This document shows positions 16,534 to 40,312 of a stretch of 64,000 nt of DNA, piece by piece; within the stretch, counting starts at the first letter, position 1; each line of letters starts with the position of its first letter. Under the pieces are notes generated by a model. It had not been told where the DNA came from, did not search any database, and worked only from the letters and a program-made list of their open reading frames with translations. A program made the translations under genes and the position numbers. Origin of the DNA: Gammaproteobacteria bacterium (GTDB taxonomy: Bacteria; Pseudomonadota; Gammaproteobacteria; CBDBNL01; JAAOII01); the NCBI GenBank assembly GCA_965209035.1, contig OZ242372.1:1568001-1632000 (forward strand). Direction: 5' to 3'.

Positions 16534-17837
16534 TGCATGATCTCATAAAGGTTCTGGACTCTGAGTTTGGTATTGTGCGTCCTCAGATCAAGCAGCCGGA
16601 TGTTCTGTCGGACGGGTCGAAAATAGATCCGGCAACGGGTCTCCGGTATGTGGAGCTAGATGAATGAAACGGGCAAGAAAGATGGATAGCTGTTTTGCTC
16701 TCACCGCCGCAGACAGCGGAGGCTTGTTGTTGATAAAACTGTCTAGGTGTATCCGCTGGCAAGACGGTACGGTGTGCGAGAGCGGCTGCACCGCGGAGGT
16801 GATTTGAAATGAGAGGAACACGTTTACGCTACATTGGTTATCGCGTGCGCGGTTTCAATAAAATGGTGGTTTTAGCAAACAAATATTCAAACATGTCTAA
16901 AACCACCAAAATCAAACTGGACACCTTAGCGTTCGCGCGCAAACATGGTGTCGCGGCGGCGCTGGATCATGCCGGGATCAGTCGTGCTACATTCTACGAG
17001 TGGCAGCGGCGTTTCCGTGAAGGCGGGGTCGATGAACTGGCGAACAACTATGGGTATCAGCCCAAGCGGTCCAACACCTGGCCACCGGCACTGATTACCA
17101 AGATCCGATCTTGGCGACAACAGCGTCCGAACATCGGTGCCGGTAAACTGGTCTGCTTGTTACCCGAATGGTGTCAGCAGCGCGGGCTGCCGCTGCCCAG
17201 CCAATCAACGCTCTCTCGCATCATTGCCGATGACCCGGATAAGATGCGGTGCAAACCATCGCGGTCCGTGCCGAAACGCCTGCGGCAAGGTGCTCCGCGC
17301 GAGCGCAAGGACATCCGCTTTGTTGCGGGCCGGAGAGGTGAATGTGTTGCCTTTGATACGCTCGTCCGCATCGTCGATGGCCGGCGCTTTTATTGGCATG
17401 TCGGCATTGATCTATTTTCCCGCTTCTCACTGGTCAGTGTCGACACCTCGGCTGCTTCGGCCAGTTCCGCCCGGCTCTTTACCGCCATGCAAAACATACT
17501 CGGCACTCGGATCGAAAAAGTCCTCACCGATAATGGCAGTGAGTTCGCCAAAGACTTTCACCGGGTCGTGACCGCAAACGGCAGCACCCACTGGTATACT
17601 TATCCAAGGAAACCGCAAATGAATGCACACTGCGAACGGTTTAATCGCACTCTCTGGGAAGAGTTCGGTTGTCATATGCGGCATCTCTTGGTTAAGGATA
17701 TGCCGGCATTCAACGCCAAACTCATCGAGTGGTTGGCTTGGTATAATCTGGAACGTCCCCATTATGCTCTCAAACAACTCTCGCCAATCCAGTTTTTGCA
17801 AAAACAAAAAAAGTCCAGAAATGGGTGGGATCATACA
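16534..17837 (+). mobile_element. IS481-family insertion sequence, copy 1 (1304 bp), 5-bp TSD CCGCA
   Basis: Imperfect IRs TGCATGATCTCATAAAGGTTCTGGACT / TGTATGATCCCACCCATTTCTGGACT; CCGCA at 16529-16533 and 17838-17842. Confidence 0.92.
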
Positions 17838-35945: not shown

Positions 35946-37190
35946 TTAGCTCGAATATACCGGAAATCGTTTACAAAGAGCGACGACGGCCTGTTGTATT
36001 TCCGTTATCAGGTTTTCGTTGTCCGGCTCATCCAAAATATCGCATATCCAAGCGGCGGTTTGGCGTACTTCCTCTTCCTTAAAGCCGCGTGTTGTGCATG
36101 CGGGGGTGCCGAGCCGCACTCCGCTGGTAACAAACGGGGAACGCGTGTCGTTCGGCACGGCATTCTTATTCAGAGTGATGTTGGCTTTGCCCAGGGCTTC
36201 TTCGGCTTTTTTCCCGCTGAGGTCTCGGTCGGTGAAAGAAACCAACATCAGATGATTATCCGTTCCGCCGGAAACCACCTGATATCCTCGTTGCATGATC
36301 ACCTCCGCCATCACGCGGGCATTCTTAACGACTTGTTTTTGATATTCTTTAAACTCGGGTTTCAACGCTTCGCCGAAGGCAACCGCCTTTGCGGCAATCA
36401 CATGCATCAGCGGGCCGCCCTGCATGCCGGGGAACACCGCGGAGTTCAATTTCTTGTCAAGTTCCGGCTGTCCTTTGGTTAGGATGATCCCGCCGCGCGG
36501 TCCGCGCAACGATTTGTGGGTGGTGCTGGTGACCACATGGGCATGTTCAAGCGGGTTGTCATATAGGCCCGCGGCAACCAGCCCGGCAACATGCGCCATA
36601 TCCACCAACAGGTAAGCGCCGACTTCGTCGGCAATTGCGCGCATCACTTTCCAGTCCACTTGACGGGAATGTGCGGAAAACCCTCCGATGAGCATTTTGG
36701 GCTTGTGTTCCCGTGCCAGATTACGCATATTGTCGTAGTCCGTCCAGCCGTCTTCCTTCAACCCATAATGAATGGCTTTGTAAATCTTGCCCGAAAAATT
36801 AACCGGCGAGCCGTGGGTTAAATGACCTCCTTCGGCTAAGTTCATTCCCAACACAAGATCATGCGGGTTGAGTAACGCCATAAAGGCGGCCGCATTTGCC
36901 TGGGCGCCGGAATGCGGCTGCACATTCGCATAGTCCGCGCCAAAAAGTTCTTTGACTCTGTCCAGAGCCAGTTGCTCTACGATATCCACATGCTCGCAGC
37001 CGCCGTAGTATCTTTTCCCCGGATAACCTTCCGCGTACTTGTTGGTCAGGACGGTCCCTTGGGCCGCCATGGCAACGGAACTTGCGTAGTTTTCCGAAGC
37101 GATTAATTCAATATGTTCTTCTTGCCGAAGTTCTTCGCCGCGAATTGCCGCTGCGAGCTCCGGGTCGGATTTTTCTATCAGATGTTGCAT
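35946..37190 (-). CDS. glyA: Serine hydroxymethyltransferase
   Basis: [41 protein letters not shown]. Confidence 0.98.
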
Positions 37191-37475
37191 ATTTTTTTCC
37201 TCTTAATTAAAATATAGTTCTTTCATTTTACAACAGGTTCTTTATTTTATGTTTTGAAGATGAACCGCATGCTGCAATGCATCATCCCGGCAAGGGTTGC
37301 ACTCTAAGTGATATCCATATCTTGTAGTTCCGCAGGTGCCGCCCGATTCTCAAGGCGAAACCGATTGGCTAACTTCTTTGGGGCATTTCAAACTGCTCTA
37401 TTAATGAATGTACTAATGCTTAGGGAATAACTCTTGCAAGTTTTATTCGGATAACCCAAAACCGGACGGGATGAT

Positions 37476-38671
37476 TGTATGATCCCACCCATTTCCAGAC
37501 TTTTGTTGTTTTTGCAAAAATTGGATCGGCGAGAGTTGTTTGAGAGCATAATAGAGGCGTTCGCGATGATACCAAGCCAACCACTCGATGAGTTTGGCGA
37601 AGACCGCTCAATGAGTCTAGCCCCTTAATTGTTACTTACGTTTGGGTTTGGGTTCGTATTTGTCTATATCATTAATATCCCAATGATTCTCCTTGAAAAA
37701 CTGATTACGCAGATACAGACCGGCCAACAGATGCACCGACTGCACAGTGCCCACCGCTTTGATTATTCCCTTCGTCTCTTCGGTTGCCGATATATTCCTT
37801 TCAACAAAAGCGTAGATCACTTCCGCAACTTGATAAAGATCGCCTTGCTCTTCTTGTTCCGAGTTAAGTTTTTTTAGATCCTTATTCCATTCTTCCCGAT
37901 GCTCGTCCACATATTCCATCAGCCCGCTACTTTCCAGTATCGCTTCACCGATGTCGGTCATATTGAGAGGAGATGCTTTTTGAGAATATAAAGCGCGTTC
38001 TTCTTCAACCGAATCTCTCTTTGCCATGTTTCCCAAAACAGTAAGAATTTTTACGGTATCACGATGCATATCTTCTCTTAACTCTCTTTTATCTTCTCTT
38101 AACTCTCTTTTAACTTCTTTTATTTCTGTTTTAACTTCCTTTATTTCTGTTCTAACTTGTTTCATTTCTGTTTGGACTTCTTTTATTTTTGTTTGGACTT
38201 CTTTTATTTCTGTTTGGACTTCTTTTATTTCTGTTTGGACTTCTTGTTGGCTCACTTCCAACCGCTTGATACCCTTATATATTGAAATGAACGCATATTC
38301 GCCAATTAAACCAATCACAAGTGATAACAAAAATATCAAAAGAATCACAAACCAATTGTTTGCCGAAACCTGCCCGTATGTAATCGCCGTGTCGTAAACC
38401 GTCATCGTGGATAAAACGGAAAATACAATAAGCCCCAGGGCCGCCGTGAATTTCGCACGACCGCTTAATTTGAGATCTGTGCGTTTATTCATCGGCAATC
38501 ACTCCTCCTCAAATTCATAAAATAGTGTCCTCTATCCTCCCGCATTTGTTATGATGTTCCCCTTTTTAATAAACTGCATTGCCCTAATGATATCTTACCA
38601 CAAAACCTTTTAGAAATTTTATCATTATATAATTCCAAACTCAGAGTCCGGAACCTTTATGAGATCATGCA
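37476..38671 (-). mobile_element. Non-autonomous IS481-ended cassette (1196 bp) carrying a passenger gene; 5-bp TSD ATGAT
   Basis: 37476-37599 is the reverse complement of the IS481 right 124 bp; 38631-38671 is the reverse complement of the left 41 bp; ATGAT at 37471-37475 and 38672-38676. Confidence 0.9.
37632..38498 (-). CDS. Passenger: two-TM membrane protein with heptad-repeat coiled coil
   Basis: Two hydrophobic helices, (EIKEVQT)n from 21-bp repeats, GAGGAG RBS upstream. Confidence 0.8.
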   Translation of the reverse strand: MPMNKRTDLKLSGRAKFTAALGLIVFSVLSTMTVYDTAITYGQVSANNWFVILLIFLLSLVIGLIGEYAFISIYKGIKRLEVSQQEVQTEIKEVQTEIKEVQTKIKEVQTEMKQVRTEIKEVKTEIKEVKRELREDKRELREDMHRDTVKILTVLGNMAKRDSVEEERALYSQKASPLNMTDIGEAILESSGLMEYVDEHREEWNKDLKKLNSEQEEQGDLYQVAEVIYAFVERNISATEETKGIIKAVGTVQSVHLLAGLYLRNQFFKENHWDINDIDKYEPKPKRK

Positions 38672-38685
38672 ATGATGCCCGGAGA

Positions 38686-39984
38686 TGCATGATCTCATAA
38701 AGGTTCTGGACTCTGAGTTCGGCATTGTGCGTCCTCAGATCAAGCGGCCGGAGGTTCTGTCGGACGGGTCGAAAATAGATCCGGCAACGGGCCTTCGGTA
38801 TGTGGAGCTAGATGAATGAAACGGGCAAGAAGGACGGATAGCTGTTTTGCTCTCACCGCCGCAGACAGCGGAGGCTTGTTGTTGATAAAACTGTCTAGGT
38901 GTATCCGCTGGCGAGACGGTACGGTTTGTGAGGGCAGCCGGACTGCACATTGGAAATGAGAGGGACACGTTTACGCTACATTGGTTATCGCGTGCGCGGT
39001 TTCAATAAAATGGTGGTTTTAGCAAATCAATATTTAAACATGTCTAAAACCACCAAAATAAAACTGGACACCTTGGCGTTCGCGCGCAAACATGGTGTCG
39101 CGGCCGCGTTGGATCATACCAGGATCAGTCGTGCTACATTCTACGAGTGGCAGCGGCGTTTCCGTGAAGGCGGGGTCGATGAACTGGCGAACAACTATGG
39201 GTATCAGCCCAAGCGGTCCAACACCTGGCCACCGGCACTGATTACCAAGATCCGATCTTGGCGACAACAGCGTCCGAACATCGGTGCCGGTAAACTGGTC
39301 TGCTTGTTACCCGAATGGTGTCAGCAGCGCGGGCTGCCGCTGCCCAGCCAATCAACGCTCTCTCGCATCATTGCCGATGACCCGGATAAGATGCGGTGCA
39401 AACCATCGCGGTCCGTGCCGAAACGCCCGCGGCATGGTGCTCCGCGCGAGCGCAAGGACACCCGCTTTGTTGCGGGCCGGAGAGGTGAATGTGTTGCCTT
39501 TGATACGCTCGTCCGCATCGTCGATGGCCGGCGCTTTTATTGGCATGTCGGCATTGACCTATTTTCCCGCTTCTCACTGGTCAGTGTCGACACCTCCGCT
39601 GCTTCGGCCAGTTCCGCCCGGCTCTTTACCGCCATGCAAAACATACTCGGCACTCGGATCGAAAAAGTCCTCACCGATAATGGCAGTGAGTTCGCCAAAG
39701 ACTTTCACCGGGTCGTGACCGCAAACGGCAGCACCCACTGGTATACCTATCCAAGGAAACCGCAAATGAATGCACACTGCGAACGGTTTAATCGCACTCT
39801 CTGGGAAGAGTTCGGTTGTCATATGCGGCATCTCTTGGTTAAGGATATGCCGGCATTCAACGCCAAACTCATCGAGTGGTTGGCTTGGTATAATCTGGAA
39901 CGTCCCCATTATGCTCTCAAACAACTCTCGCCAATCCAGTTTTTGCAAAAACAACAAAAGTCCAGAAATGGGTGGGATCATACA
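38686..39984 (+). mobile_element. IS481-family insertion sequence, copy 2 (no matching TSD)
   Basis: Near-identical to 16534-17837; flanks GGAGA / GGTAA do not match. Confidence 0.92.
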
Positions 39985-40218
39985 GGTAAGCAGACATCAA
40001 ATTTTTTGGAAATCTGTTGGCGGGTTGTTAGGTCGCCGAGGTTACCGGGATGCTTGTTTAACTTAAAAGAATACTTGAAAAGATACCCGGGACAGATTCT
40101 AACTCCTCTATGCATCTCTATGCATCCCTCATTCACTAATGCCCTAATGCTTAGGGAACAACTCTCGCCGGTTCGCTGCGGACAAAACCGGAAAAATCTC
40201 CAAAACCGGGCGGGATAG
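38950..40218 (+). CDS. IS481-family transposase, reading through the right end into flanking DNA
   Basis: Same motifs as copy 1; no stop codon inside the element. Confidence 0.9.
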   Translation: MEMRGTRLRYIGYRVRGFNKMVVLANQYLNMSKTTKIKLDTLAFARKHGVAAALDHTRISRATFYEWQRRFREGGVDELANNYGYQPKRSNTWPPALITKIRSWRQQRPNIGAGKLVCLLPEWCQQRGLPLPSQSTLSRIIADDPDKMRCKPSRSVPKRPRHGAPRERKDTRFVAGRRGECVAFDTLVRIVDGRRFYWHVGIDLFSRFSLVSVDTSAASASSARLFTAMQNILGTRIEKVLTDNGSEFAKDFHRVVTANGSTHWYTYPRKPQMNAHCERFNRTLWEEFGCHMRHLLVKDMPAFNAKLIEWLAWYNLERPHYALKQLSPIQFLQKQQKSRNGWDHTGKQTSNFLEICWRVVRSPRLPGCLFNLKEYLKRYPGQILTPLCISMHPSFTNALMLREQLSPVRCGQNRKNLQNRAG

Positions 40219-40312
40219 GACACAACCTTTAAAAAGGTCCGTTCGCTTCTCATATAATACTTCTTATCACAAGTTATAGTTTGTTCTTACATTAATAATC
40301 ATCAATCATCGG

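Follow-up and report, generated by a model that had tools for sequence, protein, structure and literature searches.

MIC231, which derives from IS231 (IS4 family) and is found in the Bacillus cereus group, is an example of a mobile insertion cassette (MIC). The class is recognised among IS derivatives and is defined in PMC3129680. Within the IS481 family, PMC10232235 describes MITEPpu1, a 292-bp MITE with 26-bp imperfect inverted repeats and 5-bp direct repeats. TnRErm46 with ISRe46, from Rhodococcus equi, is an IS481-family transposon that carries cargo genes, and transposition in the family is believed to be of the copy-paste type (PMC6794481). The ends of IS481-family elements begin with TG and their target duplications range over 2-15 bp, and eukaryotic non-autonomous relatives of the family have been described (PMC10045372).

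Here we describe a candidate MIC with the ends of an IS481-like element. It lies in a 64,000-nucleotide stretch of a Gammaproteobacteria genome (assembly GCA_965209035.1, contig OZ242372.1, positions 1,568,001 to 1,632,000), called the window below and numbered from its first letter. The genome consists of a 2.18-Mb chromosome, which holds the window, and a 65.7-kb second contig.

Anatomy of the cassette

The features are listed with window coordinates and strand, L and R designating the left and right ends of the IS.

37426-37475, plus strand: insertion target, the tip of a decayed right end that belongs to a second and distinct IS481-like element (inner boundary approximate)
37471-37475, no strand: left copy of the target-site duplication ATGAT, directly outside the R terminus of the cassette
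37476-38671, minus strand: the whole cassette, 1196 bp against 1299 or 1304 bp in full IS copies
37476-37599, minus strand: right-end remnant of 124 bp (R124), equal to IS nt 1176-1299, matching at 114/124 (E = 2e-45, genome-wide BLAST)
37600-37631, minus strand: non-IS spacer of 32 bp from the cargo stop codon to the right-end remnant, a junction that recurs in the second cassette copy
37632-38492, minus strand: cargo gene of 286 aa, with ATG at 38492 and GGAGG upstream
38072-38245, minus strand: 21-bp in-frame tandem repeat, 8.3 copies, coding for coiled-coil heptads
38493-38630, minus strand: non-IS 5' region of the cargo, 138 bp, common to all 7 A-type units (subfamily A, below)
38629-38624, minus strand: TATAAT, two bases inside the 41-bp left-end remnant
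38631-38671, minus strand: left-end remnant of 41 bp (L41), equal to IS nt 1-41, matching at 38/41 (E = 1.4e-9, genome-wide BLAST)
38672-38676, no strand: right copy of ATGAT, directly outside the L terminus of the cassette
38686-39984, plus strand: autonomous IS481-like element of 1299 bp, head to head with the cassette and 14 bp away, which may have supplied transposase
16534-17837, plus strand: second autonomous copy in the window, of the 1304-bp class, with the 5-bp duplication CCGCA

The reference for the cassette-end matches is the neighbouring IS at 38686-39984. Both matches extend to the terminal nucleotide of the IS and stand in the correct relative orientation. R124 comprises the terminal inverted repeat and the final 41 codons of the transposase, which are non-coding in the cassette. 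There is no transposase inside the unit, where IS nt 42-1175 are missing and the sole long ORF has no rve domain. The cargo gene runs from the L end to the R end, which is the direction of the transposase, and the cassette interior has a G+C content of 38.6%, compared with 53.7% in the IS and 49.2% in the whole chromosome. The TATAAT is not called by a consensus promoter scan, as it lacks a matching -35.

Most of this had been proposed in an earlier note, made from the letters of the window, and the anatomy it gave holds up: 41 bp of left end and 124 bp of right end bracketing a gene, a perfect ATGAT duplication, a size of 1196 bp versus about 1300 bp, a TATAAT just inside the left end, and an AT-rich passenger gene that replaces the transposase and is oriented as the transposase would be. 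Its statement that the duplication has the same length as that of the autonomous copy is right for the CCGCA copy at 16534-17837 and for 14 of the 20 full copies in the genome, and wrong for the adjoining copy, which has none.

At its extremities, over 21 nt (L) and 20 nt (R), the cassette is identical to the commonest ends of full copies, and the first cassette-specific variants relative to the IS are found 21-22 nt from each terminus. The C at position 22 of the L end also occurs in other cassettes and is present in 0/20 full copies. The inner repeat block of the cassette ends reads TCC.GACT versus TCTGGACT in full copies, a difference from all 20 of them, and R124 of the window cassette is 7-9% diverged from every full copy compared. 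From the inner-block variant and this divergence, we infer that the ends come from an IS lineage that has left no surviving full copy.

The IS and its copies in the genome

A BLAST search of the whole genome with the IS recovers 20 full-length copies, which are 1298-1304 bp long and 94.3-100% identical, plus 40 left-end and 71 right-end fragments, with no match on the 65.7-kb second contig. Four copies are 100% identical, so the IS has been active recently. In every one of the 20 the transposase is open over at least 316 aa, as a single frame with no frameshift. A perfect 5-bp target duplication, with no evident consensus, flanks 14 of the 20; the IS at 38686-39984, with GGAGA on one side and GGTAA on the other, is one of the six full copies that have none. 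At the DNA level the IS is absent from the 12 nearest genomes.

The transposase has rve_3 (E = 1.2e-13) and rve (E = 5.6e-8) domains. Its best NCBIfam model is transpos_IS481, with 171 bits and E = 2.8e-50, which is below the cut-off of 224, and IS3 follows with 99 bits. The best annotated relatives in the plasmid collection are the ISKpn28-type IS481-like transposases of enterobacterial plasmids, which cover 99% of the query but at only 35-36% amino-acid identity. Because of that low identity and the score below cut-off, we use the name IS481-like. The terminal inverted repeats begin TGCATGATC and TGTATGATC, and the TG start and the 5-bp duplication fit the range of the IS481 family.

Several other properties of the IS can be recorded here. 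In 20/20 copies the transposase frame meets no stop codon before the end of the element (window 38950-40218; C1:257360-258658 is another example). The frame runs past the right terminus, and flanking DNA sets a C-terminal tail of 0 to ~76 extra residues. The IS also tends to insert in or beside ends of its own kind, as at C1:679332-681934, C1:1176729-1179330, C1:2060357, C1:884786-886128 and window 37426-37482; there are tandem IS pairs 5 bp and 0 bp apart, and one IS copy sits within a right-end remnant. The pentamer AAGTG is common to the right flank of C1:1178027-1179330 and, 3 kb away, to the left flank of C1:1182577-1183875, a copy in inverted orientation, which is as expected if the intervening segment had been inverted by recombination between the two IS copies.

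The insertion target

The site of insertion is downstream of glyA, and the final 5 bases of the target remnant at 37426-37475 constitute the left ATGAT copy. The last 19-21 nt of the target recur at C1:1317531-1317551 and C1:1176692-1176710, where they end sequence resembling a transposase C terminus. Both paralogous copies have a single ATGAT followed by other DNA, and at C1:1317531 the two bases after ATGAT are the same as those after the right ATGAT copy of the cassette. Judged by sequence, these single-ATGAT paralogous targets are a putative stand-in for the empty site. Another decayed right-end remnant of this second IS481-like element is found at window 40140-40217, downstream of the autonomous IS and oriented like the one at 37426-37475.

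The reads of 4 runs, searched over 36900-40300, contain no flank-to-flank joint, excision product or circle junction. Two candidates were rejected. A joint of 37475 to 38685 with 17 extra letters, taken as an empty site, is the paralogous locus C1:1176692-1176729, and a joint of 39984 to 38686 with ATTTG, taken as a circle, is the genomic tandem IS pair C1:679332-681934. JGI metagenome contigs gave 83 pattern matches, none of which was confirmed.

A second copy and other derivatives

The earlier note had gone on to suggest a trans-mobilised cassette system that carries different cargo genes, to be looked for by searching the genome for both ends. Pairing of L and R fragments in the correct orientation within 6 kb, over the whole genome, yields six loci with cargo and ten derivatives, of 96-922 bp, that have no gene. 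The window unit is accordingly not the only instance, there being a second R124-gene-L41 unit at C1:157759-158890, and the suggested system draws support from this second copy, from the 3.3-kb lipoprotein units and the two further bracketed lipoprotein genes described below, and from the 20 transposase genes. The direction of the cargo is that of the transposase in 6/6 loci. Perfect duplications are found in 2 of the 16 non-autonomous L/R units, the window cassette and one 346-bp miniature; none of the other cargo-bearing units has a target duplication.

The unit at C1:157759-158890 has the same internal junctions as the window cassette and unrelated flanks, and forms the terminal unit of a four-gene array, C1:157759-162059. 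Homology between the two cassettes stops at the R terminus, the flanks beyond being unrelated, and the second copy has no target duplication. R124 of the window copy is identical at 123/124 positions to C1:157759-157882, and the spacer plus the 3' half of the cargo gene at 481/481 to C1:157883-158363, which leaves a single difference over the 3'-most 605 bp of the window copy, R124 included. Counted on the alignment, the two copies differ at 19 of the first 461 columns and at 2 of the ~690 that follow the repeat; pS is 0.09 in the first 78 codons and 0 in the C-terminal 143 codons. This mosaic divergence indicates that the copies recombine and makes the donor-recipient history unreadable. The window copy also has variants found in none of the six other A-type units.

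A second cassette type of 3.3 kb is represented by C1:575690-578979 and C1:1361669-1365029, which are 89.5% identical over their full length, with homology that starts and stops at the IS termini and flanks that are unrelated. Its cargo is an adhesin-like lipoprotein of 805-867 aa with TSP3, fn3 and GLUG motifs. Two further lipoprotein genes are bracketed by other combinations of L and R fragments.

The lipoprotein family with GLUG, TSP3 and fn3 motifs is a large one, with 96 matches to its C-terminal domain in the 2.18-Mb chromosome, many of them in tandem arrays such as those at C1:1197800-1209300, C1:718000-726500 and C1:968800-980500. A same-strand right-end terminus is found no more than 600 bp downstream in 17 of the 96 genes; these belong to one clade and are kin, not independent events. 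In one lipoprotein clade every gene is followed by a right-end remnant of 65-107 bp, and the array junction coincides exactly with the IS terminus. Among the gene-less derivatives, two identical 96-bp L+R miniatures at C1:320325-320420 and C1:320896-320991 are 571 bp apart and have identical flanks, from which it follows that they are part of a larger direct repeat and are not two insertions.

The cargo protein and its family

At its N terminus the cargo protein has two membrane helices, which are followed by a long coiled coil and by a conserved C-terminal domain that is all-helical. An AlphaFold2 model from a 62-sequence alignment is all-helical with a mean pLDDT of 85.2, one helix of ~110 residues, and a compact helical C-terminal domain; it has 0 matches in the PDB at E ≤ 0.001. 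No Pfam, NCBIfam, PADLOC or PHROGs family scores above cut-off, the only hits being coiled-coil and membrane-helix noise, and the best ESM Atlas score is 0.78. Searching with a profile of the C-terminal domain gives 494 representatives at E ≤ 1e-3, and 27 at 1e-10. Most are proteins of ~200 aa having one membrane helix and a coiled coil joined to this domain, in a family that has no name. The N-terminal part of the cargo has pN/pS values of 0.05-0.23, by which measure it is under purifying selection. The number of 21-bp repeats differs in every paralogue (subfamily A proteins range over 263-296 aa), and the length of the stalk varies with it. Our best guess from the predicted structure is that the cargo is an envelope protein with a length-variable stalk.

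There are 14 members of the family in the genome. Subfamily A has 7 genes, 85-99% identical and at three loci, and the 41-bp left-end fusion is found in 7/7, while the 124-bp right end is on only 2/7, the window copy and the terminal unit of the C1:157759-162059 array. Subfamily B, at 37-43% identity to A, has 6 genes plus a pseudogene. In the B arrays (C1:2066379-2069496 and C1:259154-261204), downstream units have IS left-end nt 1 to ~133 fused to codon 3; their start is the ATGAAT of a short IS leader ORF, which replaces the native N terminus and makes a translational fusion. The B pseudogene is fused at IS nt 216, and a right-end remnant of 65 bp lies 92 bp downstream of a solo B gene. The distant member at C1:1896412-1897185, 23-25% identical, has no nearby IS end.

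It was considered whether array junctions exactly at the L terminus prove that a transposase made the duplications. This was rejected, because an IS between tandem genes, an internal deletion and unequal crossing-over give the same picture.

Among the 41 genomes searched, the cargo protein is absent from those other than this one, 7 of them giving only short coiled-coil matches with E values of 3.7e-5 to 7.4e-4. Six proteins 75-88% identical to the cargo are found on three other contigs. A contig of run X4, from a different sample and study, has the same junction of L terminus, linker and gene, with the gene ~97% identical, so the arrays are not private to this assembly. Against window 37645-38671, run X4 has the A-type gene at ~97%, yet nothing at 90% or more over most of the glyA flank, a pattern that either low coverage (depth ~3) or a gene family common to more distant hosts would give.

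Interpretation

We give a probability of about 0.8 to the reading that the window unit is a MIC of an IS481-like element, mobilised in trans. Counted for it are the ends that reach the terminal base, the duplication (as in 14 of the 20 full copies), the variants that start only 21-22 nt from each terminus, the second copy, the target form with a single ATGAT, the habit of this IS of landing in or near IS ends, the 20 transposases that could act in trans, and the sister elements. The paralogues, the profile matches and the purifying selection also show the cargo to be a real gene. Counted against it are the diverged ends, the presence of duplications in just 2/16 units, the second copy that has none, the mosaicism, and the absence of an empty site or circle junction.

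As a MIC, the unit would have arisen from a gene that had received the two ends at different times. The left-end fusion of 41 bp would be the older event, since it is present on all 7 close paralogues, and the 124-bp right end would have been gained later, since it is on only 2 of them; that gain would have completed a pair of ends usable by a transposase. In the unit as it stands, the whole transposase (IS nt 42-1175) is replaced by 1031 bp bringing its own -10 element, a ribosome-binding site and one membrane-anchored coiled-coil gene. Transposase from one of the 20 intact IS copies would have bound both retained terminal inverted repeats, and the cassette would have inserted into the tip of the older IS remnant downstream of glyA, with the 5-bp ATGAT duplicated in the process. 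That the cassette has moved is suggested by the duplication and the precise ends. Presumably the transposase acted in trans on the whole unit and recognised ends of the older lineage, and presumably the cargo is expressed. Since the cassette ends differ from those of 20/20 full copies, their recognition by the present transposases is an assumption that we make. The tandem units at other loci can be explained by unequal crossing-over alone, with no transposition.

Other histories could leave a gene between two IS ends. In one, a full IS made the ATGAT duplication on insertion and its interior was later swapped, via double recombination or gene conversion, with that of an L41-gene-R124 unit. The dispersed copies do recombine, as seen in the single difference over the 3' 605 bp against 19 in 461 columns of the 5' part, and the outer 20-21 nt of both ends are those of full copies. 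The crossovers would, however, have to fall within those outermost 20-21 nt on both sides, since the variants specific to the cassette start at nt 21-22. Such a swap would also need a donor that was already an L-gene-R cassette, so that the structure exists anyway, and two different flanks abut the same R terminus. We consider replacement in place improbable. It is far harder to credit that two unrelated IS remnants happen to surround a resident gene and that the ATGAT match is fortuitous. Remnants are plentiful enough, at 40 L and 71 R fragments, and they do lie beside many tandem surface-protein genes, such as 17 of the 96 lipoprotein genes. Chance, though, would have to supply two fragments in the correct orientation, both complete to the terminal base, and a perfect 5-bp match at both exact termini, whose likelihood estimated from base frequencies is ~1 in 1000. 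It would also have to account for both internal junctions recurring at the second locus and for the single ATGAT of the paralogous target.

The locus might finally be a product of assembly, an array unit having been joined into the window because the genome has more than 100 repeats of the IS ends. Short-read contigs do break at IS ends, and the right junction is unbridged by them. The left junction is crossed with 0 mismatches (36900-37512) by Logan contigs of 7656 and 1776 bp from runs X1 and X3, which may be the source sample. The assembly comprises just 2 contigs, and the variants of the window copy that are absent from the six other units mark it as a distinct copy. A misassembly is thus very improbable, and the MIC remains the reading that we prefer.

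A wider view can be taken of the same remnants, covering the 14-member coiled-coil family, in which the IS left end is fused at three positions, and the clade of the 96-member GLUG lipoproteins. IS481-like ends of the older lineage might be vehicles that parasitise transposases, disperse genes for envelope proteins and seed tandem arrays, in which case IS ends, as opposed to whole ISs, would be a main engine of expansion and variation in the surface-protein families of this lineage. We offer this tentatively and think it rather unlikely. More narrowly, IS-end remnants beside two expanded envelope-protein families suggest a route for IS activity to spread and amplify surface genes during host restriction.

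Comparison with known systems

The locus would widen the range of documented transposase-less gene cassettes to an IS481-like element, and leaves known transposition mechanisms unchanged. As a MIC it is an unusually clean case: both ends are intact, the duplication is perfect, there is a sister copy, the target has a single-copy form, and 20 full IS copies could serve as helpers. Its ends, ~8% diverged from every living full copy, may still move, and this bears on how long non-autonomous elements survive after their parents are gone. The claim that such a cassette is new for this family can be kept in part. In the literature searched, which did not extend to supplements, ISfinder or TnPedia, no transposase-less, gene-carrying IS481 cassette, and hence no IS481 MIC, was found in print; an IS481-family MITE (PMC10232235) and IS481-family cargo transposons (PMC6794481) are published.

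Of the classes that might otherwise hold the unit, a MITE does not agree with 1196 bp and a complete 286-aa gene, a transporter IS or unit transposon (tIS, TnRErm46-like) with the lack of a transposase between the ends, and a composite transposon with flanks that are only 41-bp and 124-bp remnants. The unit resembles MITEPpu1 in being a non-autonomous IS481-type derivative with a 5-bp duplication, and gene-less derivatives of 96-922 bp are also present in this genome, but MITEPpu1 has no gene and the window element has what looks from its sequence like a complete, expressed one. It resembles TnRErm46 in that IS481-family ends carry unrelated cargo as one unit with precise direct repeats. TnRErm46 has its own transposase, a length of 6.9 kb and a 6-bp duplication of the form NCTAGN, whereas the window element lacks a transposase and its duplication is of 5 bp, with no evident consensus.

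The MICs are the nearest match. As in those, IS terminal repeats bracket a passenger gene in place of a transposase, the duplication has the length of the parent's, and a cognate transposase, presumed to act in trans, is encoded in the same genome. In contrast to MIC231, the parent here is IS481-like, with a 5-bp duplication and TG..CA ends, and not of the IS4 family; the passenger gene encodes a membrane coiled-coil protein whose family has no name; and mobilisation in trans is presumed from sequence.
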